Under the pieces are notes generated by a model, which did not search any database, was not told the DNA's origin, and saw only the letters and a list, made by a program, of their open reading frames with translations. A stretch of DNA of 7,894 bases from a virus: the IMG/VR virus record IMGVR_UViG_3300011013_000867, positions 1-7,894 of that record, one strand, 5' to 3'. Position numbers and translations under genes: made by a program. Below, piece after piece: positions 1-7,894 of the stretch (its first letter is position 1; every line of letters starts with the position of its first letter).

Positions 1-170
1 ATTAGAATTAGATGAATTAGAATTAGAACTGTTATCAGAAGTAGATGAATTAGAATTAGATGAATTAGAATTAGAACTGTTATCAGAAGTAGATGAATTA
101 GAATTAGATGAATTAGAATTAGATGAGCTTGATGAATTAGAATTAGATGAATTAGAATTAGATGTATCAT
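1..170. repeat. In-frame tandem repeat: 48-nt unit x2 (1-48, 49-96) followed by degenerate 15-nt sub-repeats; encodes SNSNSSNSNSSTSDNS-type linker
   Basis: The unit attagaattagatgaattagaattagaactgttatcagaagtagatga occurs twice without mismatch. The attagaattagatga motif continues to about base 165. Confidence 0.9.
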
Positions 171-855
171 TTGAAAAAGAAAGAGTAAATCTTCTATAAC
201 CATCGTGCGGAACAATTTTAGTTAAATTACTCTCATTACCATCAGAATAACAAAAAGAATTAGACGCATAAACAGGTACATCATCATAACATTTTTTACC
301 ATCACCAACAATATCAATACATTTATTAACTCCATAATTAGTCATAGTATCCATACAATCAAAAGCTAAATTAAGACCTTTTTGAGAGCAAAAATAATAA
401 AAAATTCCATAAAGATCGTTACAATTTTTTGGTTTATGATATTGAACGCATCTATAATCGCTAATGTTTTCATCAAATAAAAGATAAGAACCTTCAGAAC
501 AAATACACCTATTACCAGAATGATTAGGAACAAAATTAGCATCACACTCACACTTATTAGAACCAACCTTATGAGAAAATGGAGGACACTTATAAACAGG
601 ACGTTGAATTTGATACCAACAAACATAATAATGTATATGTCTATAACGATTATAATAATGATATGTACTTAAATATTTACAATGTGGATAATGAACTTGC
701 TTACAATATTTTTTAACATAATTTTTACAACCGGTATTATCAGGCAAAACCCAAGTTTTATTACCTACATTCTTAAATTCTACATAAGCAGAGATATATC
801 CAGAAGCAAAAGAAAAAACTAAAAAAAGATTAAAAAAGAGAAAAATAAATCTCAT
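1..855 (-). CDS. pIII-like adsorption/minor coat protein, N-terminal 285 codons (signal peptide, 16-Cys domain, Ser/Asn-rich linker); runs off the left edge and continues at the right edge
   Basis: ATG at 855 (cat at 853-855) is preceded by AGGA with a 6-nt spacer. Hand translation reads MRFIFLFFNLFLVFSFASGYISAYVEFKNVGNKTWVLPDNTGCKNYVKKYCKQVHYPHCKYLSTYHYYNRYRHIHYYVCWYQIQRPVYKCPPFSHKVGSNKCECDANFVPNHSGNRCICSEGSYLLFDENISDYRCVQYHKPKNCNDLYGIFYYFCSQKGLNLAFDCMDTMTNYGVNKCIDIVGDGKKCYDDVPVYASNSFCYSDGNESNLTKIVPHDGYRRFTLSFSNDTSNSNSSNSNSSSSSNSNSS... and has no stop down to base 1. It is absent from the ORF track because no stop lies inside the window. Confidence 0.75.
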   Translation of the reverse strand, partial: MRFIFLFFNLFLVFSFASGYISAYVEFKNVGNKTWVLPDNTGCKNYVKKYCKQVHYPHCKYLSTYHYYNRYRHIHYYVCWYQIQRPVYKCPPFSHKVGSNKCECDANFVPNHSGNRCICSEGSYLLFDENISDYRCVQYHKPKNCNDLYGIFYYFCSQKGLNLAFDCMDTMTNYGVNKCIDIVGDGKKCYDDVPVYASNSFCYSDGNESNLTKIVPHDGYRRFTLSFSNDTSNSNSSNSNSSSSSNSNSSNSNSSTSDNSSNSNSSNSNSSTSDNSSNSNSSNSN

Positions 856-863
856 TAAAAATC

Positions 864-992
864 CTATGAAGATTCTTTAATGAGAGACAGAATTGCAAAA
901 AAAGGAACCAAGATAACAGCAAACCAAATCATAATCGAAGCAAAATAATTAAATACAACATCATTAGTTAAATCTATAATTGTTATATCCAT
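864..992 (-). CDS. 42-aa small hydrophobic protein, candidate pVII/pIX-like minor (tip) coat protein
   Basis: Hand translation from ATG at 992 (AAGG 7 nt upstream) gives MDITIIDLTNDVVFNYFASIMIWFAVILVPFFAILSLIKESS, ending at TAG 864-866. It has one hydrophobic segment and no signal peptide. It is wedged between the 69-aa ORF stop (1005) and the pIII-like start (855). It is too short for the supplied track. Confidence 0.5.
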   Translation of the reverse strand: MDITIIDLTNDVVFNYFASIMIWFAVILVPFFAILSLIKESS

Positions 993-1004
993 AGATAAAC
1001 CTTT

Positions 1005-1214
1005 TTATTTAACAACTACTTTTATAGAAAAATATAAAATAACAAAACCAACCAAAACACCACTTAAACCCATAAGGAAATTATAATCATTATAAGCTAA
1101 ATTAAGATTATTAGCAATCTTTGTAGCATTATAATCATCATCAGAAAAAGAAAAAACAGGGAGTATTAAAAATAAGATTCTAATTAAGATGAGTTTTAAG
1201 CAGCTTAATCGCAT
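1005..1214 (-). CDS. 69-aa secreted coat-like protein (signal peptide, acidic N-terminus, hydrophobic core, basic C-terminus)
   Basis: The track ORF 1005..1223 begins at a GTG; the first ATG is at 1214 (cat at 1212-1214), with GGGGTG upstream. Sequence: MRLSCLKLILIRILFLILPVFSFS|DDDYNATKIANNLNLAYNDYNFLMGLSGVLVGFVILYFSIKVVVK. The layout resembles pVIII. Confidence 0.55.
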   Translation of the reverse strand: MRLSCLKLILIRILFLILPVFSFSDDDYNATKIANNLNLAYNDYNFLMGLSGVLVGFVILYFSIKVVVK

Positions 1215-1286
1215 TTTTAACACCCCACAAAAAAACCATAAAAGTTAAAAAAGAGCTAAAAAAAACTACAAAATTATCAACATAAA

Positions 1287-1316
1287 TTTTAAAACCCACG
1301 GGAAAAAACTCCCGTG
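1287..1316 (-). terminator. Rho-independent terminator candidate directly after the major coat gene
   Basis: A 7-bp stem (cacggga 1297-1303 paired with tcccgtg 1310-1316) encloses a 6-nt loop. On the minus strand this reads CACGGGA-GTTTTT-TCCCGTG followed by GGTTTTAAAA. The GC-rich stem stands out in AT-rich DNA. Confidence 0.5.
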
Positions 1317-1496
1317 TTATCTAATTAAGTGTAGAGCTTTTTTAATAGCCCATATACCAGCCAAGCCAGTCAATAAAGCACCAGCAACAGTAACAACATT
1401 GCTTAAATCAAATGTAGGAGCAGTCAAAGTAGCATCCGCAAAAGCCATAGAAGCACCAAGACCAACTACAGCAGCAATCTTAAAAAGCTTTTTCAT
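1317..1496 (-). CDS. 59-aa major coat protein (pVIII-like)
   Basis: Hand translation from ATG at 1496 (AAGGAG 6 nt upstream) gives MKKLFKIAAVVGLGASMAFA|DATLTAPTFDLSNVVTVAGALLTGLAGIWAIKKALHLIR, with TAA at 1317-1319. It has a signal peptide with an AxA site. The mature ~39-aa product has an acidic N-terminus, a hydrophobic middle and a basic C-terminus. A GC-stem hairpin follows immediately, as after Ff gene VIII. Not in the supplied track. Confidence 0.8.
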   Translation of the reverse strand: MKKLFKIAAVVGLGASMAFADATLTAPTFDLSNVVTVAGALLTGLAGIWAIKKALHLIR

Positions 1497-1520
1497 AGAA
1501 AACTCCTTAAAAAAAATTTT

Positions 1521-1537
1521 TTAGGGATTAACCCTAA
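1521..1537 (-). promoter_or_regulatory. Small hairpin between the ssDNA-binding gene and the coat gene (weak attenuator or mRNA element candidate)
   Basis: ttaggg (1521-1526) pairs with ccctaa (1532-1537) around a 5-nt loop. On the minus strand it is followed by AAAAATTTTTTTT and then the coat AAGGAG. Confidence 0.25.
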
Positions 1538-1615
1538 TAATATTTTATAATCTTTTTACTTAATTATTTCTTAACTTTCAATAAATCATTTTACCAGAAA
1601 AGAAAGAAATAAAAC

Positions 1616-1969
1616 TCATTTTTTCAACAAACTATCAATATATTTAACAAATTCATTAGAATCAGAAACTTTAACTTGAAACTGACTTTTTCCTCCTGTT
1701 GGCATAGGAATTTGTGTTTTGAACTCCAAAATTACATTTTTCTTTCTAATTTCATCTAATTTATCACGCAAAATTAAAGCATTACTGTATTTTTCCAAAG
1801 GAACAACAAAAATTATATCTTGAACAATCTCATTACCATTTTCATCAAGCTTAAACGCTTGTGAAGAAAATTGAACTTTTGAAGGAAAAGAAATACCTTG
1901 AAAAGTACCACTTTCCAAAGCTTTTAAACCACTAAAACCTTTAACACGAAAAATAATATCTAAACTCAT
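1616..1969 (-). CDS. 117-aa putative ssDNA-binding protein (gene V analogue, assigned by position only)
   Basis: A strong AAGGAG lies 5 nt upstream of ATG 1969. The small soluble protein sits immediately after rep and before the coat gene, which is the gene V slot in Ff-type genomes. I recognised no sequence motif. Confidence 0.5.
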   Translation of the reverse strand: MSLDIIFRVKGFSGLKALESGTFQGISFPSKVQFSSQAFKLDENGNEIVQDIIFVVPLEKYSNALILRDKLDEIRKKNVILEFKTQIPMPTGGKSQFQVKVSDSNEFVKYIDSLLKK

Positions 1970-2027
1970 ATAAACTCCTTATAATTTATTTGTAATATAA
2001 TTATAATAAAATAATATAAAATATAAC

Positions 2028-3014
2028 TTAAACAATATAATAATTATTAAAATCTTTAGAAAAAAACAATTTATTATTATGATATATCTTCAAAACATTG
2101 TTTTTAAAAACAATAGTATGATTTAAATCAGAATTATAAAGAACAAACTCACCCTTTTTAAAGTTCTTTTCTTTAACATCATAAAAAACAGTATAATCAA
2201 ACCAATCTGAATTTAAAAAAAATATTTTCTTATATATCCAAAAAGGTAAAACAGAAAAAGAAGTCGTAAATCTTCTAATCTTATATTTTAAATACCAAAC
2301 TTGCAAAGCATCTAATTTTTGATTTTTTTTTATATTTAAAAATGATTTTGTAGTATATTTTAAAATATAACCTACAGGATTTTTTAAAGCAACTTCAAAT
2401 TTTTTTTGTTTAGCAGGAAAATATTCATAAAACTTATTTTTAACTTCATCAACAAAATCATTATGTATCCAAAGAAGCATATGAATATGAGGAACTCCAT
2501 CAGATCGATGAGGCTCTGTAGCTCTAATATAAGCCCTCTTATAACCCAATTTCCTCATTTTCCTAAAAACATTTGTATAAATAAATCTCCATAACTGAAA
2601 ATTTAAAATATTATACAAATCTTTAATAGTAAAAACTTCATTATTATTTATCTTATCACGCAAAAAACCAAAACGTTCATTATTTGGAATATATCTATCG
2701 TAAAAATTTCTATTTTTTAAATTATTATACCTTTTAAAATTAGAACATAAAAAATCACGAAAAAAACCATCCAAAGTAACAGTTAAAAAAATAGGAACTA
2801 AACGAAAATTAGATGATATTAACTTAAAAGTATTAATTTTGTTTATAAGGGTATTATAATAACGCTCACTTAAATTAGCAGACATAGAAATATCTAAAAA
2901 AGTTTTTACTTCACCATTTGAATTTACAATATGTTTATTATTTAAAAAACTTCTTTGTTGCTCTAATTTTTTATTATAAAAAATTATATCAGACTCAGAA
3001 ATACCATACAACAT
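2028..3014 (-). CDS. 328-aa HUH-superfamily rolling-circle replication initiator (Rep)
   Basis: Three RCR motifs occur in canonical order: FLTVTL (residues 76-81), PHIHMLLW with HUH = H176-I-H178 (plus strand aagcatatgaatatg at 2475-2489), and GYILKYTTK with Y216 and Y220 (YxxKY). Confidence 0.9.
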   Translation of the reverse strand: MLYGISESDIIFYNKKLEQQRSFLNNKHIVNSNGEVKTFLDISMSANLSERYYNTLINKINTFKLISSNFRLVPIFLTVTLDGFFRDFLCSNFKRYNNLKNRNFYDRYIPNNERFGFLRDKINNNEVFTIKDLYNILNFQLWRFIYTNVFRKMRKLGYKRAYIRATEPHRSDGVPHIHMLLWIHNDFVDEVKNKFYEYFPAKQKKFEVALKNPVGYILKYTTKSFLNIKKNQKLDALQVWYLKYKIRRFTTSFSVLPFWIYKKIFFLNSDWFDYTVFYDVKEKNFKKGEFVLYNSDLNHTIVFKNNVLKIYHNNKLFFSKDFNNYYIV

Positions 3015-3104
3015 TTTTTATCTTTTTATAAATTTTTTATATATTTTATATTTTTTAATTTATTTTAATTTTATTAATTATTAATAATTTAAATATATTT
3101 TATC

Positions 3105-3132
3105 ATTACAACATTTTTTGTTAATTTGTCAA
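3105..3132 (-). promoter_or_regulatory. Sigma70-like promoter candidate for rep
   Basis: On the minus strand: TTGACA (3132-3127), a 16-nt spacer ending TGt, then TGTAAT (3110-3105). This is about 90 nt upstream of the rep ATG and abuts the GC hairpin. -10-like hexamers are common in AT-rich DNA, but TTGACA is rare here. Confidence 0.35.
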
Positions 3133-3133
3133 G

Positions 3134-3178
3134 GGACGCTGCGCGTCCGCTCGCAAGCTCGCTATCCGCGTAGCGTCC
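3134..3178. promoter_or_regulatory. GC-rich imperfect hairpin; candidate replication origin/nick-site or packaging structure
   Basis: ggacgctgcgcg (3134-3145) pairs with cgcgtagcgtcc (3167-3178), giving 12 bp with one G.T position and a 21-nt loop containing gctcgc twice. An alternative local hairpin is ggacgc (3134-3139) with gcgtcc (3143-3148). Region 3133-3178 is 33/46 G+C by hand count. It lies between the RHH gene and the rep promoter candidate. Confidence 0.55.
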
Positions 3179-3206
3179 TATTTCTTTCTTTATTATACAA
3201 AAAAAA

Positions 3207-3371
3207 TTAATTAAAAAGAGAAGAATTCTTAATAACATAATCTTTAATCAACATTCTAATAACTTTGCTTGCATCTAAATCTTTTGATTTGCATACACTC
3301 ATAAATATTTTTTTAGTATTTTTATCTATAAGCACAGATATTCTATCATTTTTAATATTTTTATGCTTCAT
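3207..3371 (-). CDS. 54-aa ribbon-helix-helix (CopG/Arc-like) DNA-binding protein
   Basis: Hand translation from ATG 3371 (GGAG 5 nt upstream) gives MKHKNIKNDRISVLIDKNTKKIFMSVCKSKDLDASKVIRMLIKDYVIKNSSLFN, with TAA at 3207-3209. RISVLI(strand)-KNTKKIFMSVCKSK(helix)-DLDAS-KVIRMLIKDYV(helix) aligns without gaps with CopG RLTITLSESVLENLEKMAREMGLSKSAMISVALENY (recalled from memory). Not in the supplied track. Confidence 0.6.
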   Translation of the reverse strand: MKHKNIKNDRISVLIDKNTKKIFMSVCKSKDLDASKVIRMLIKDYVIKNSSLFN

Positions 3372-3419
3372 AATAACTCCAAAAAAATTTTTACAATATT
3401 ATTATAACAAAATTAAAAT

Positions 3420-4163
3420 CTATGAATTTTTTAATTTATTATTTTCTAAAAAAGAATAAAAAACATCAATATTTTTTAGTCTTCTATTATACATCTTATT
3501 CCAAAGATACAAAGCATCTTCACGATTGCAAAAATCATCATAATAATAACAATAAATAAAACCATTTCTAATCTCAAAAACAACATCATCTTTAAATCTT
3601 TCAGGATCTGAAAACTTAAAACCATTAAAATATTTAGTAATAAAATCTTTAAATTCTTTAAGAGAGATATTTTTAAAAAACTCTCTCAAATCTTCTTTAG
3701 TAGAGAGAGTATTTATTATATTTCTTTTATTAGTATATTCAATATTTAATAGTGTCTTGTTATCCGATGTCGGATTTTCCAACTTCGGAGTTGACAACGT
3801 AGGATTATCAACATTTTTATCAATATTTTCATTTTCTTTTAATTGCTCTTCGTATTTTTTTAAAGGTATTTCATAAACTTCATATTCAACTCTTAAAAAT
3901 CTACCTTTCTCATCTCTTATAGTATTTCTAACTAAATATCCAGAATTTTCAAGCTCTTTCAAACCAGAACGTAAAGAATCACGACCATCAGTAGAACGAT
4001 TAACTAAATCATTCAAACGAACTTGCCAATTAGAAGGACGAGAAAACAAATACAACAAAATTCCTTTAGCTTTCCAAGAAAGACCGCAATCACTTATAAA
4101 ACCATTATCAACGACAGTATAATTTCTTAACTTCTTTTGCTTAAACTGTAGTAAAGAACTCAT
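3420..4163 (-). CDS. 247-aa winged-helix DNA-binding protein of the DnaD/plasmid-phage replication-initiator-like (HTH_36-type) kind; C-terminal half unassigned
   Basis: AGGAG lies 6 nt upstream of ATG 4163. The N-terminus YTVVDNGFISDCGLSWKAKGILLYLFSRPSNWQVRLNDLVNRSTDGRDSLRSGLKELENSGYLVRNTIRDEKGRFLRVEYEVYEIP matches the pattern I know from that family (LS..AKG..LYL.S.P..W....DL.......I...LKELE..GYL......D..G.F....Y.VYE.P). It is followed by a DNP...ENP...LLNIEYTNK linker typical of those proteins. Confidence 0.75.
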   Translation of the reverse strand: MSSLLQFKQKKLRNYTVVDNGFISDCGLSWKAKGILLYLFSRPSNWQVRLNDLVNRSTDGRDSLRSGLKELENSGYLVRNTIRDEKGRFLRVEYEVYEIPLKKYEEQLKENENIDKNVDNPTLSTPKLENPTSDNKTLLNIEYTNKRNIINTLSTKEDLREFFKNISLKEFKDFITKYFNGFKFSDPERFKDDVVFEIRNGFIYCYYYDDFCNREDALYLWNKMYNRRLKNIDVFYSFLENNKLKNS

Positions 4164-4193
4164 AATAAACTCCTAAATAAATAATGTAAAAAC

Positions 4194-4221
4194 ATTATAA
4201 TAAAATTATAATAAAAAGCAA
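4194..4221 (-). promoter_or_regulatory. Promoter candidate for the wHTH/RHH genes
   Basis: On the minus strand: TTGCTT (4221-4216), a 16-nt spacer, then TATAAT (4199-4194), about 30 nt upstream of ATG 4163. Specificity is low in AT-rich DNA. Confidence 0.25.
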
Positions 4222-4287
4222 ATAAAATATAAAAAAATAAATAAATTAGCTTTTTTTAACAAACTGATTGAGAGTTTAAAACAATAT

Positions 4288-4343
4288 GAGCAAAGATTTT
4301 TTTTTGCTTTTTTGACACGAAGCAAAAAAAATCTACTTTGCTC
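4288..4343. promoter_or_regulatory. Long imperfect AT-rich hairpin downstream of the secretin gene; candidate packaging signal and/or terminator
   Basis: gagcaaag (4288-4295) pairs with ctttgctc (4336-4343). The T9 run (4297-4305) pairs with the A8 run (4324-4331). gctt (4306-4309) pairs with aagc (4320-4323). This gives about 20 bp, a small bulge and a 10-nt loop ttttgacacg. On the minus strand it is followed by ATATTGTTTT. Confidence 0.45.
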
Positions 4344-4522
4344 TCAAACCTTATTAAGTATATACAAAATATTTACATTATCAACATAATAATATCATTT
4401 CAATTTGATATGACAGTTATATTATTACATTAATATTATTTGATATTAAATAATATTATTAAAAGCTTAAAAATTTTTCGAGTTTCGCACGATTCAAGCA
4501 ATTTATAAGTTTATCTAATTAT

Positions 4523-5698
4523 TCAATGATTTTTAAAAGGATTATTTTTATTTATAAATTTTAAAAGAGGATTTGAAGTTTTCAAAACATTAACATTAAG
4601 ATACAAAATATAAGTAAATTTTAAATCTGAATGAGTAGATGAATTAAACAAATTTTTAATGATAGGAATATCAGAAAGCAACGGAATATATTTTCTATTA
4701 TCTTTTGCAAAAACATCAGTGTTTAATCCAGCAATGGCAATTTTTTGCCCAACAGGAATTATAAAAGAAGTATCTAAATCTATAGCATTTTTAACATAAT
4801 TATCATTTCTACTATCATAATAACTATCTTCAAAAAACATTTTAATCAAAACTTTATCACTTATCAGAACAGGCTTAACTCTAAAAATAAGACCCACAGT
4901 TTTCTCTTCATAAGTAGTCGTATTTGTAGGAATAGTCTTATCATAAGAAGTAATAATCTGATTAGGTATTCTATAAACCTTTGAATTAGTAAACCTAACA
5001 GATTGACCAGATAGACAAATAAAGTTAGGCTTTACAATAGAATTTATATAACCCTTACTTTCTAAAAAGTCAAGATAAACAGAAATATCATCACCCGAGT
5101 TTCTATAGTCAAATCCAATCTTTTTAAAAAAATCAAAAAATAAAGATGGATTAGAATATTCATTAATAGATTTAATAAGAATATTTAAATTAATATTATT
5201 ATTTTTTATATTATTAATGTTAACGCGATAAATAGAACTTATAAATTTTAATGTCTTTGGAAAATTTATTTGTTTAATTGTTTTATAAAAACGATTAAAA
5301 TCATCAGTTTTATCATACAAAACAATAAAATTATTTTTGTTTAAATAATGAACTTCTAAATTAAATTTACTAGCAATATTATTAAGTTTTTTTATATTCA
5401 AATTATTAATTTTTATAATTTTTGATTTTTTAGGAATTTTTTTAATGTAATAAAATCCAGCATTATAAGATAGATAATAATTATTAGGTATAAGAACTTG
5501 TTTAATCATATCAATATATTGTTTCTTTGAAATATCATCATGCACAGACATGAAAACATTAATATTCATATCTTTATCGTACAAAAAATTTATATTGTAT
5601 CTCTCTGAAACAAACAAAATAAAATCTTTAAATTTTAATTGTAGAACATTAGCACTAACAAAAGAAAAAGTTAAAAACAAAAACAATAAAAATCTCAT
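4523..5698 (-). CDS. 391-aa outer-membrane secretin (pIV-like)
   Basis: It has a signal peptide MRFLLFLFLTFSFVSA and an N-domain-like LKFKDFILFVSERYNINFLYD. The secretin C-domain pattern is present: YLDFLESKGYINSIVKPNFICLSGQSVRF...KTVGLIFRVKPVLISDKVLIKMFFEDS...DTSFIIPVGQKIAIAGL...YIPLLSDIPIIKNLF. GGAGG is upstream, and the ATGA overlaps the pI stop. Confidence 0.85.
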   Translation of the reverse strand: MRFLLFLFLTFSFVSANVLQLKFKDFILFVSERYNINFLYDKDMNINVFMSVHDDISKKQYIDMIKQVLIPNNYYLSYNAGFYYIKKIPKKSKIIKINNLNIKKLNNIASKFNLEVHYLNKNNFIVLYDKTDDFNRFYKTIKQINFPKTLKFISSIYRVNINNIKNNNINLNILIKSINEYSNPSLFFDFFKKIGFDYRNSGDDISVYLDFLESKGYINSIVKPNFICLSGQSVRFTNSKVYRIPNQIITSYDKTIPTNTTTYEEKTVGLIFRVKPVLISDKVLIKMFFEDSYYDSRNDNYVKNAIDLDTSFIIPVGQKIAIAGLNTDVFAKDNRKYIPLLSDIPIIKNLFNSSTHSDLKFTYILYLNVNVLKTSNPLLKFINKNNPFKNH

Positions 5699-6798
5699 CT
5701 AAAAAGACCTCCAGAACCAAAAAGATAAGTATTATTATTATCAAACTTTTGAATAGTCTTAATCTTATTAGCATTAACATATTTATCCAAAATCTTAAAT
5801 TTATAATTATTTAAAGAATAGCAATAAAAAAAATATAAACCATATGAACGCTTAAATATAAGCTTTTGACCTTTAATAATATATTTAACAAATGCAACAT
5901 TCAAATAAACATCTTTGTAATAACAGCTATCCTTACTACACTTAAAAAATACAATATTGTCAGAATTAGAAGTATTATCAACAAAATTATTCTTACCATT
6001 TTCAGATTGATATTGTTTAATATTAGATTGACTTAAAACTTTTTCATTGTCAACAGGAACATTTTTTTTATCTTCAGAAGAAGACATAAAATATCGAATA
6101 ATAAAAAAAGCAAGAAAAAATAAAAGCAATAAAACCAAAGCAATAAGACCAAATTTTTGTATAAAACTCTTATTTTGAACAGAAGAGCCAGAATTATATA
6201 ACAAAAAAACGTCAGGAATAACAGAAACAGATATAACAGAAACTTTTTGAGTATTATACATTTTATCGCCAGAGTACAAATTGTATCTCATTTTGTTTTT
6301 TGAAATCCTCAAAGAAGATGGAAAAGCTTTATAAAAATGCTCCGAGAAAGCTTTATATTTTGAATCAACGAGAGATAAATTTTGAGTTACTAAAATTATC
6401 TCTTGATACAAATGCCTTGCATATGAAAGCCACCAAATTAAAACATCGTCTTTCTTGCTCAAATAATTATGACATTCATCAAAAACAATCAAACATCTTG
6501 ATAATTTATATTCAGAAGCTTTTTCATTTAATTCAACATCAGTAACATTATCTTTATAAAGAGCATATAAATCTGATAAATAATTGTAAAAATTCTTAAA
6601 ATTTATATTTTCAACATTATCAAATTTTGATAAATCCAAACCATTGATATTAGTATAGCAAAAATCAATATTTTTTACTTCAAAATCTTTCTTTATCTTT
6701 TTTTTTAACTCTTCATCTTTAACGAAGTTTTTAACAATAAATAGTAGTGAAAAATAAGTTTTACCACTTCCAATTACACCTGTAACAAAGCGTATCAT
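5695..6798 (-). CDS. 367-aa pI/Zot-family P-loop assembly ATPase
   Basis: An N-terminal Walker A (MIRFVTGVIGSGKTY), a Walker B (CLIVFDECH) and a central TM segment (FGLIALVLLLLFFLAFFIIRYF) precede a Cys-containing C-terminal domain. The gene sits directly upstream of the secretin with 4-nt overlaps on both sides. Confidence 0.9.
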   Translation of the reverse strand: MIRFVTGVIGSGKTYFSLLFIVKNFVKDEELKKKIKKDFEVKNIDFCYTNINGLDLSKFDNVENINFKNFYNYLSDLYALYKDNVTDVELNEKASEYKLSRCLIVFDECHNYLSKKDDVLIWWLSYARHLYQEIILVTQNLSLVDSKYKAFSEHFYKAFPSSLRISKNKMRYNLYSGDKMYNTQKVSVISVSVIPDVFLLYNSGSSVQNKSFIQKFGLIALVLLLLFFLAFFIIRYFMSSSEDKKNVPVDNEKVLSQSNIKQYQSENGKNNFVDNTSNSDNIVFFKCSKDSCYYKDVYLNVAFVKYIIKGQKLIFKRSYGLYFFYCYSLNNYKFKILDKYVNANKIKTIQKFDNNNTYLFGSGGLFR

Positions 6799-7226
6799 GC
6801 AACACCACGAAGAGCATCTTTAATTAAATTTTTTAATATTCTTTTTGCTTCAACTGACATTTTATAAAAAATAAAAGTGAAAACAAATAAAATTGAAGAG
6901 AAAAAAATAGGTTTTGATTGATTAATACCATCTAAAAAACCAGAGCAAGAAAGCATATGAGAAATCATTTTAAAAATACAACTTGATTGAGAACTAACAG
7001 AGCCAGAGCTACCAGAAGCTAAAATTTGTATATTATGTAATACATTTGTTATTAAATTGTATAAATCAGAAAGAGTAACAAGTATAAAAACATAAAAAGT
7101 TATAACAGCAGAATAATAAGATACCAAAAAAGTATATTCTATCGCAATTACAACTGTTTTAGTAGAAAATTTCTTAACAAAGAAAGATATTAAATCACCC
7201 AAGAAAGCAACAATTGCACCCCACAT
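6795..7226 (-). CDS. 143-aa multi-pass membrane protein, pVI-like minor coat protein (by position)
   Basis: GGAG lies inside the last codons of the pIII-like gene, with ATG at 7226. Several hydrophobic segments are present. The gene lies between the pIII-like and pI genes, as Ff gene VI does. I recognised no sequence motif. Confidence 0.55.
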   Translation of the reverse strand: MWGAIVAFLGDLISFFVKKFSTKTVVIAIEYTFLVSYYSAVITFYVFILVTLSDLYNLITNVLHNIQILASGSSGSVSSQSSCIFKMISHMLSCSGFLDGINQSKPIFFSSILFVFTFIFYKMSVEAKRILKNLIKDALRGVA

Positions 7227-7228
7227 AA

Positions 7229-7894
7229 TTAACTCCTAAATCTTAAAATTGTTTTAACAACTATAAGAATAGACAAAATACTTATTAAAATATTAATTAT
7301 TAATGCAATAATCGGAGCCATAGGAGAAATGTATGGACAAAAATCAATTGAGATCTCTTTACCGTTAAAAGGATTTCTAAATTTTGCACATACAGGAAGA
7401 TTATCATTTTTATGAATATCTAATTTAAAACCTCTTCTAAAAACATCTTTCGTTTTAGAAATCTCTCGAAATAAAGAATCAAAATCACTTTTAACATTAT
7501 CTTTAAATTTGTTAAAACCAGAAAACAAACTATCTTCTTTACCAGTCAAAGTATTTAAGCCACTTGTATCAATATTATAATTAACATCTTTACCAGCACC
7601 TTGACCAGCGTTACAATGTTTAAACTCATTATTACCAGAACTACCACCAGAGCTACCAGAACTACCACCAGAGCTACCAGAACTACCACCAGAGCTACCA
7701 GAACTACCACCAGAGCTACCAGAGCTACCACCAGAGCTACCAGAACTACCACCAGAGCTACCAGAACTACCACCAGAGCTAGTCAAAGGATCTGAAATAT
7801 TAGAATTAGATGAATTAGAATTAGAACTGTTATCAGAAGTAGATGAATTAGAATTAGATGAATTAGAATTAGAACTGTTATCAGAAGTAGATGA
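7229..7894 (-). CDS. pIII-like adsorption/minor coat protein, C-terminal part (Ser/Asn linker, (SSGGSSG)x7 linker, C-terminal domain with membrane anchor); 7799-7894 duplicates 1-96
   Basis: The reading frame stays open from the right edge to TAA at 7229-7231. The tracker's M at 7786 is a TTG inside ...SNSNISDPLTSSGG... The frame matches the 855-start ORF when 7799=1: codon first bases fall at 7786, 7789...7801=3, and 855 is also 0 mod 3. The C-terminus MAPIIALIINILISILSILIVVKTILRFRS is a hydrophobic anchor plus basic tail, as in Ff g3p. The joined product is 474 aa. Confidence 0.75.
   Translation of the reverse strand, partial: SSTSDNSSNSNSSNSNSSTSDNSSNSNSSNSNISDPLTSSGGSSGSSGGSSGSSGGSSGSSGGSSGSSGGSSGSSGGSSGSSGGSSGNNEFKHCNAGQGAGKDVNYNIDTSGLNTLTGKEDSLFSGFNKFKDNVKSDFDSLFREISKTKDVFRRGFKLDIHKNDNLPVCAKFRNPFNGKEISIDFCPYISPMAPIIALIINILISILSILIVVKTILRFRS
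7634..7780. repeat. Seven tandem 21-nt in-frame repeats encoding (SSGGSSG)x7
   Basis: The unit accagaactaccaccagagct starts at 7634, 7655, 7676, 7697, 7718, 7739 and 7760. Six copies are identical. The fifth has one substitution (a->g at 7724), which is synonymous on the coding strand (AGT->AGC). Confidence 0.95.
7799..7894. repeat. Terminal redundancy: exact copy of bases 1-96 (the same two 48-nt units)
   Basis: Direct comparison of the window ends. The identity starts at 'at' (7799-7800) after ...tctgaaat. Confidence 0.95.

Follow-up and report, generated by a model that had tools for sequence, protein, structure and literature searches.

We analyzed a 7,894-nucleotide (nt) stretch of viral DNA, positions 1 to 7,894 of IMG/VR record IMGVR_UViG_3300011013_000867 and hereafter called the window, which is a complete or nearly complete filamentous-phage genome with ~20–23% G+C. 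Between the secretin gene and the gene for the rolling-circle replication protein (rep) lie two genes on the minus strand, one encoding a protein of 247 amino acids (aa; 4163..3420) and the other a ribbon-helix-helix (RHH) protein of 54 aa (3371..3207). Judging from related genomes, the stretch 4522–3207, which comprises the two genes and intergenic region A upstream of them, is a cassette inserted upstream of the ancestral rep-proximal element. We infer, with a probability of roughly 0.45, that it provides a plasmid-type initiator and a CopG/ORF56-like repressor for episomal maintenance and copy control.

Two genes between secretin and rep

As a set of relatives we used 79 related inovirus loci from an IMG/VR scan, most of which have recognizable Zot and secretin genes. 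The gap from the end of secretin to the start of rep was 107–391 nt (median, 248) in 68 of 70 related loci compared to 1,508 nt in the window, in agreement with the first-pass annotation of this DNA, which had placed the two genes in a spacer that is normally non-coding. In the survey of related inoviruses proposed there, neither cassette protein was encoded in any of the 79 loci (tblastn and phmmer). Likewise, the window's Zot, secretin and Rep were absent from all 163 loci with a homolog of the N-terminal domain (N-domain) of the 247-aa protein. Intergenic region B, between the 54-aa gene and rep, keeps an element that is conserved upstream of rep in the relatives, and the cassette therefore lies upstream of that element. 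The intergenic region can reasonably be described as split, as had been proposed, with strongly folding spacers on both flanks and the cassette between secretin and the rep-proximal element. In L003, which is among the closest IMG/VR relatives (Rep identity, 43%), a 71-aa open reading frame (ORF) at L003 6750–6965 fills the secretin–rep gap. Its assignment as an RHH protein was rejected, its strand-helix-helix pattern being visible by eye only, with no Pfam match and no profile support.

Both cassette genes are real. Scored against the codon usage of six core genes of the phage, the 247-aa gene had a log-likelihood ratio per codon of +0.50 and the 54-aa gene of +0.26, compared to +0.43 to +0.59 for the core genes; off-frames scored negative, and spurious plus-strand ORFs ranged from −0.11 to +0.13. 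A host-type promoter-like element precedes each gene, as does a ribosome-binding site, a Shine–Dalgarno sequence (AGGAG or GGAG) located 6–7 nt ahead of the ATG. The ORFs were thus confirmed at the coordinates first assigned to them, including 3207–3371, which had been found only by hand translation: its codon usage was favorable in the annotated frame only, and the 54-aa ORF is also called as a gene on a public European Nucleotide Archive (ENA) contig.

The window has no integrase-sized ORF on either strand. The lack of an integrase had been noted before, and it becomes more telling since all three relatives checked (L003, L004 and L009) carry a tyrosine integrase right after rep.

The 247-aa protein and its rare C-terminal domain

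By its profile matches and predicted structure, the large protein is modular, and its N-terminal winged helix (aa 1–116; nt 3816–4163, minus strand) belongs to a family found in initiators and replisome organizers of temperate tailed phages and plasmids. A disordered, Asn/Pro-rich linker (aa 117–141) leads to a C-terminal domain (aa ~142–241; nt 3441–3740, minus strand). The gene itself is supported by its ORF, profile matches, AlphaFold model and codon usage.

An exhaustive phmmer search of 1.84 billion representatives revealed only four other proteins carrying the C-terminal domain (~105 residues). The closest full-length homolog of the 247-aa protein, P0002 (42% identity, 91% coverage), has the same type of winged helix and is encoded directly after parA–parB and before a resolvase gene, on a 13-kb contig that also contains a type I restriction system. 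The N-terminus of P0194 corresponds to Pfam Phage_rep_org_N, with a match to the PHROG "replisome organizer" at 4e-43, and P0195 matches the PHROG "DnaD-like helicase loader" at 6e-59. P0196 has Pfam Lin1244_N at its N-terminus and a match to the PHROG "replication initiation"; a ParM-like gene and an 80-aa gene directly precede its own gene, and the 69-kb contig also has toxin–antitoxin genes. By these assignments, the same C-terminal domain is found behind no fewer than three distinct N-terminal modules of initiator or replisome-organizer proteins, and twice it stands where a plasmid Rep would be expected. Of all the evidence, this company of initiators and partition genes speaks most strongly for a replication protein, as opposed to a mere repressor. 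The first-pass annotation had recognized no motif in the C-terminal ~120 aa; what can now be added is a rare domain common to four other proteins. P0194, P0195 and P0196 (loci L162, L163 and L164) all come from JGI sample 3300014197, and the N-terminal domain differs in each. We considered the C-terminal domain as a divergent DnaD C-terminal domain and rejected this on the basis of no match to Pfam DnaB_2/DnaD (PF07261) and a profile–profile (hhalign) probability of 0.1; its AlphaFold model was too poor for a Foldseek search.

For the N-domain, the best PHROG matches were 4707 (1e-25) and 428 (3e-21), annotated as replication initiation, followed by PHROG 186 (DnaD-like helicase loader; 4e-17), with coverage of residues ~6–170. 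AlphaFold, run with a 78-sequence alignment, predicted a winged helix of helix-helix-helix-hairpin topology with pLDDT >90 for residues 20–110, and beyond it the disordered linker and a less confident C-terminal domain of a helix and a hairpin. Together these results uphold the earlier assignment to a winged helix of the DnaD or plasmid/phage initiator type, with the Pfam family HTH_36 (PF13730) falling just below threshold on the protein itself and precomputed on many of its homologs. Using Foldseek, matches in the Protein Data Bank (PDB) covered the winged helix only and comprised generic regulators, DnaD-N (2v79) and DnaB-N (5wtn), all with E >0.01; against BFVD there were 35 matches at 1e-3 or better, all from tailed phages and one named as a RepA-like initiator. 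Sequence and profile searches of the PDB with the 247-aa protein gave no match. The protein does not fit the iteron-type initiators (Rep_3/RepA/pi): there was no Rep_3 match, the winged helix is single and no iteron array was found.

Homologs of the N-domain are widespread. A word-index search returned 78 matches, mostly from Firmicutes, with C-terminal parts that include DnaD, DUF6017 or Phg_2220_C. Homologs were located at 80 genome loci, none of them in Campylobacterota, and on 474 IMG/VR contigs, of which the best 80 loci were examined. A further 330 plasmids and 336 GenBank phages encode homologs annotated as replication initiation or DnaD-type proteins, and a homolog of the 247-aa protein is the largest ORF of a circular contig (4.8 kb) belonging to a Clostridia genome bin. 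Among the closest known systems are the DnaD-like initiators and replisome organizers of temperate tailed phages (for example, in Bacillus phage B13, Enterococcus phage fHoEfm07 and Lactobacillus phage LL-H), which have a homologous N-terminal winged helix (E = 1e-25 to 4e-17, 35–55% identity over ~100 aa) and the same layout of winged helix, Asn/Pro-rich linker and variable C-terminal domain. In contrast to these proteins, the C-terminal domain here is not of the DnaD type, no helicase or loader gene is adjacent, and the genome is that of an inovirus, with 7.8 kb of single-stranded DNA and a rolling-circle Rep already present.

Among plasmids, Leptospira supplies 102 of the 330 with an N-domain homolog. 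The match on Leptospira pGui1 is a helix-turn-helix (HTH) protein adjoining parAB, with a homologous N-domain (33% identity over residues 7–142, E = 1e-7). We equated it with the protein predicted as Rep in PMC4140679 (pGui1_0066 of Leptospira interrogans; LA1839 family) by position, size (471 versus 478 aa) and N-terminal HTH, not by accession. Shuttle vectors carrying Leptospira rep or rep plus parAB replicate (PMC4640553). The layout of rep beside parAB in Leptospira plasmids matches that of P0002, but the Leptospira proteins are ~470 aa long with an unrelated C-terminal half, and the phage has no partition genes.

The window's own Rep (3014..2028, minus strand; 328 aa; Pfam REP_ORF2-G2P, 7e-9) has intact HUH and YxxKY motifs. 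It lacks a C-terminal domain of ~110–150 aa that is found in all 15 aligned relatives, which are 440–480 aa long; in the relatives this domain has a conserved ...NELIxRG...GE..SL motif and no Pfam match. The oddity of a rolling-circle Rep beside a second, initiator-like protein, pointed out in the first-pass annotation, stands. That inoviruses and other mobile elements swap replication and integration modules has already been documented (PMC6813254). In the literature searched, which is incomplete, as are the scans, we found no filamentous phage reported to have a protein of the replisome-organizer type.

The ribbon-helix-helix protein, the spacers and the rest of the genome

The 54-aa protein is a minimal RHH protein with no C-terminal extension, and its RHH fold, proposed in the first-pass annotation, was borne out by a match to Pfam RHH_9 (PF19839) over residues 9–51 (45.5 bits versus a curated cut-off of 23.4, E = 7e-12). 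In NCBIfam, sub-threshold matches were obtained to ORF56 (2e-5), RelB/DinJ (5e-5), RepC of IncL/M and the RepA regulator (NF010256/PRK13702), all of them plasmid copy-control or antitoxin RHH proteins. The score for the ORF56 equivalog (NF041793) was 24.6 bits compared to a cut-off of 50, and RelB scored 19.9 versus 22.4 bits in Pfam (7e-4) and 23.5 versus 45.65 bits in NCBIfam. A RelB/DinJ antitoxin is not supported: the scores are sub-threshold, the protein has 54 aa in all and no tail, and its neighbors are the 247-aa gene and rep. With neither a C-terminal tail nor a toxin neighbor, an antitoxin role is thus unlikely. A single-sequence model of the monomer showed helices at residues 17–29 and 34–53, with residues 6–13 modeled as helix, not strand. 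A word-index search (5-residue words, 5.8 billion clusters) returned only the protein itself, PDB matches reached only E ~0.1 (DinJ and ORF56), and a literature search on PF19839 gave nothing relevant.

Like CopG of pMV158 and ORF56 of pRN1, the protein is a minimal RHH of 45–56 aa encoded immediately upstream of, and in the same orientation as, a replication gene (for orf56, PMC4234260). Unlike in those systems, the RHH gene and rep are 192 nt apart, and a hairpin and a separate promoter-like site occupy this spacer, so that co-transcription of the two genes is not evident.

The first-pass annotation had treated the two genes as a module, an idea that was not supported. Among the small ORFs flanking ~160 N-domain homologs (Pfam), those upstream were mostly of the Cro/cI-type HTH class (13 HTH_3); RHH-type neighbors were rare, amounting to one RHH_3, one NikA-like and one MobC, and P0002 has no RHH neighbor. 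A conserved unit of RHH plus winged helix was rejected on this basis. The exception comes from Legionella conjugative plasmids, in which a TraY-domain RHH gene overlaps the start of the homolog by 23 nt and the pair (L245 4763–6074; L246 4763–6044) lies directly ahead of traT and traL-E-K-B. As in the phage, an RHH gene adjoins a homolog of the 247-aa protein (353–363 aa; 36% identity over residues 9–218); in contrast to the phage, the RHH gene comes first, the pair heads a tra operon, no similarity is detectable between the RHH proteins and the C-terminal domain is not shared.

Intergenic region A (4164..4522, minus strand) runs for 359 nt from the secretin stop to the start of the 247-aa gene, is AT-rich and, as single-stranded DNA, folds better than shuffled sequences (z = −3.9). 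It contains period-10 AT repeats (4430–4460), two copies of ATATCAAAT (4438–4446 and 4403–4411), one copy of GTTGATAAT (4377–4385), a long hairpin (about 4288–4345), tandem TTTATTATAAT promoter-like elements (4194–4215) and a palindrome, ATAATGT-N4-ACATTAT (4181–4198), that overlaps the −10-like element of the 247-aa gene. The region may serve as a packaging or complementary-strand signal and could also be where the 247-aa protein binds. The two cassette genes are separated by a 48-nt spacer (3372..3419, minus strand) with the promoter-like TTTGTTATAAT (3401–3411) and the GGAG ribosome-binding site of the RHH gene; the spacer is 73% similar over 45 nt (repeat D1) to the region upstream of the 247-aa gene. 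The window holds the motif TTTRTTATAAT four times as an exact match, each time on the coding strand (a tandem pair at 4194–4215, 3401–3411 and 2000–2010), with the copies ending ~30 nt ahead of the start codons of the 247-aa gene (the tandem pair), the RHH gene and a 117-aa gene; the motif resembles a −10 box preceded by a T-rich tract.

Intergenic region B (3015..3206, minus strand; 192 nt) extends from the RHH gene to rep and also folds as single-stranded DNA better than shuffles (z = −3.25). A GC-rich hairpin (3134–3178) is directly followed by CTTGACAAATTAACAAAAAA; the region contains the conserved 15-mer CAAATTAACAAAAAA (3114–3128) and a promoter-like TTAACA-16-TAAAAT (3097–3124). The 15-mer CAAATTAAYAAAAAA was found as an exact match 40–55 nt upstream of rep in 32 relatives and in none of 167 unrelated loci. 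In the alignment it is always preceded by a GC-rich inverted repeat that keeps its position and has a lineage-specific sequence (for example, L019 6900–6962 and L021 2300–2371). An invariant 15-mer behind a variable GC-rich hairpin marks region B as the ancestral rep-proximal region, and the two elements are a candidate plus-strand origin (nick region) and/or rep promoter. Blastn of the intergenic regions against the relatives gave low-complexity matches only, and the 15-mer surfaced via translations of spurious ORFs.

The first-pass annotation had also suggested looking for operator-like repeats in 3015–3206 and 4164–4522; our sequence search of both revealed no operator or iteron above chance. 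ATATCAAAT was found only in the upstream spacer, its copies 35 nt apart, with counts near chance for a motif that was picked post hoc. Palindromes overlap −10-like elements at 4181–4198 and 3390–3411, at a frequency not above chance in 80% A+T DNA. GTTGATAAT occurs five times on the minus strand compared to 0.23 expected (1273–1281, 3804–3812, 4104–4112, 4377–4385 and 5974–5982), with three of the five copies in or adjoining the 247-aa gene. At the P0002 locus, a 19-nt perfect direct repeat, GTTATATCAATTCAAACAA (L001 9299–9317 and 9393–9411), has copies 94 nt apart, the second of which forms the first codons of P0002; the repeat contains ATATCAATT, which is related to ATATCAAAT, and immediately ahead of it, following parB, is a large inverted repeat. 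This repeat is a possible autoregulatory or initiator site.

The window carries every gene on the minus strand, with uniform composition and skew, and a 96-nt direct repeat at its ends closes the circle. In the direction of the genes, the order is the 247-aa gene, the 54-aa gene, rep, the 117-aa gene, a gene for a 59-aa coat-like protein, genes for small membrane proteins, a Gly/Ser-rich g3-like gene, a g6-like gene, Zot/pI and secretin; the order of the inovirus genes is the one seen in the 79 IMG/VR relatives. Assignment to the inoviruses is based on the Pfam matches of Zot (2e-18), Secretin (3e-16) and REP_ORF2-G2P, on the one-strand layout and on the circle. As in Ff phages (M13/fd/f1), coat and morphogenesis genes, pI/Zot, secretin, a spacer and rep follow one another and the spacers fold strongly as single-stranded DNA; unlike in the gene IV–intergenic region–gene II segment of Ff, the spacer is split by two genes and the Rep is of a P2 gpA/ORF2-G2P-like family. 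The g3-like gene spans the window ends, where tandem 48-nt and 21-nt repeats (1–164 and 7633–7894) encode its Gly/Ser-rich linkers. The same sequence is public as ENA contig ERZ27251151:k141_253690, where it is 7,786 nt long rather than 7,894 nt, so repeat copy number and exact genome length are uncertain.

Near-identical DNA was absent from GenBank phages and PLSDB plasmids, an Rfam search gave one match at chance level, and single-protein IMG/VR scans with the 247-aa protein and with Rep gave no confirmed match. The relatives of Rep are "replication endonucleases" of Aliarcobacter, Arcobacteraceae, Sulfurovum, Sulfurospirillaceae and Campylobacter ureolyticus (identity up to 51%), which points to a host that is probably a member of the Campylobacterota. 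The 117-aa gene (1616–1969, minus strand) occupies the position of gene V (single-strand-binding protein); it had no match in Pfam, PHROG or NCBIfam and no tblastn match in the 79 relatives.

Possible episomal maintenance and its alternatives

Several functions had been listed for the cassette in the first-pass annotation. Replication or copy control of a non-integrating state fits best, because the C-terminal domain is common only to proteins of the replisome-organizer or initiator type, two of which are encoded beside partition genes; superinfection exclusion found no backing, with no PADLOC match. Under the favored explanation, the 247-aa protein would use its winged helix to bind within or close to intergenic region A, or else within its own gene, and its C-terminal domain would recruit host replication proteins. 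Double-strand replication of the replicative form could then start independently of the rolling-circle Rep, and the double-stranded circle of this integrase-less phage could be maintained in plasmid form. Acting in the manner of CopG (pMV158) or ORF56 (pRN1), the RHH dimer would repress one or more of three promoters, those of its own gene, the initiator gene and the downstream rolling-circle rep, and in this way set copy number and virion output.

A number of observations weigh against this explanation. The cassette is known from one genome only, and the two genes do not co-occur elsewhere, so their roles may be unrelated. The HTH_36 match of the 247-aa protein is sub-threshold (21.4 versus 25 bits, E = 2e-4), and the winged-helix family is annotated by homology, with some members described as plain 'HTH DNA-binding' proteins. 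There are no clear iterons, with the paired ATATCAAAT, ATAATGT and the AT repeats all near chance for the composition, and DnaA boxes are not enriched; four of the five GTTGATAAT copies encode Val-Asp-Asn, and codon usage may explain part of their excess. In Legionella, the homolog that follows a TraY-type RHH gene heads a transfer operon, which suggests processing of single-stranded DNA and not theta-type replication. Inoviruses already persist as episomes via their rolling-circle Rep and do not require a second replicon, and absence of an integrase is compatible with host Xer-mediated integration.

The two proteins could instead be transcription regulators only, with the winged-helix protein (as repressor or activator) and the RHH protein (as repressor) forming a lysogeny-like switch that throttles rep and the structural genes. 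Both folds are classic repressor folds, the PDB matches found by Foldseek include MarR, PadR and ArsR types, the palindromes overlap promoter-like elements of both genes, and small regulators commonly adjoin rep in inoviruses, with an RHH-like family in a supplementary table (PMC6813254). We nonetheless consider this unlikely, as the N-domain fits replication-initiator profiles (1e-25) far better than any regulator family, the C-terminal domain has its initiator-type and partition-gene associations, and a long linker and second domain are superfluous for a simple repressor. Alternatively, both proteins might serve rolling-circle replication, the RHH protein by bending the hairpin at the origin or marking it for the HUH Rep, in the way that TraY or NikA assist relaxases, and the winged-helix protein by recruiting helicase or priming functions to offset the domain that Rep has lost. 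The shortened Rep would fit, as would the end of the RHH gene 28 nt from the conserved GC-rich hairpin and 15-mer, the overlapping TraY-domain gene ahead of the Legionella tra genes, and the NikA-like and MobC ORFs downstream of other homologs. On the other side, the RHH protein is not detectably similar to the Legionella TraY-domain protein, its sub-threshold profiles are copy-control, replication-regulator and antitoxin families and not TraY or NikA, and most homologs of the 247-aa protein are found in replication modules of double-stranded DNA phages or by plasmid partition genes with no HUH enzyme, all of which makes the accessory role distinctly improbable.

We regard as very unlikely that the genes are unrelated cargo, either for superinfection exclusion or defense or as a decayed toxin–antitoxin system consisting of an RHH antitoxin with no toxin. 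Toxin–antitoxin pairs are known in inoviruses (PMC6813254), and the weak RelB/DinJ matches (Pfam 7e-4, NCBIfam 5e-5) point the same way, but neither protein matches PADLOC, no toxin-sized gene is present between the flanking 247-aa gene and rep, the RHH protein has no C-terminal toxin-binding tail and its RelB scores are sub-threshold. An artifact, in the form of a phage–plasmid assembly chimera or dead genes, can practically be discounted. The sequence is a single metagenomic contig with repeat-rich ends and two reported lengths (7,894 versus 7,786 nt); nonetheless, the contig closes into a circle, and its repeat falls within the g3-like gene, a long way from the cassette. Composition and skew are uniform, the genes all share one strand, the codon usage of the cassette equals that of the core genes, and both ORFs are intact with ribosome-binding sites.

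Returning to plasmid-type initiation and copy control, a more far-reaching version, which we consider doubtful, is a filamentous 'phage-plasmid' with two replication systems, in which the initiator, with an origin in 4164–4522, would maintain a controlled-copy circle instead of integration, the shortened Rep would serve only to produce single strands for export and the RHH protein would be the switch between the two modes. A few models aside, it is poorly understood how non-integrating filamentous phages are stably maintained as cells divide and how they restrain their own replication. If the favored explanation is true, lysogeny by integration would have been exchanged for plasmid-like maintenance within one phage lineage, and the cassette would offer a compact candidate replicon (~1.3 kb) for the Campylobacterota, a group with few genetic tools. 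The rare C-terminal domain, which has no known partner, marks a small set of initiator-type proteins.

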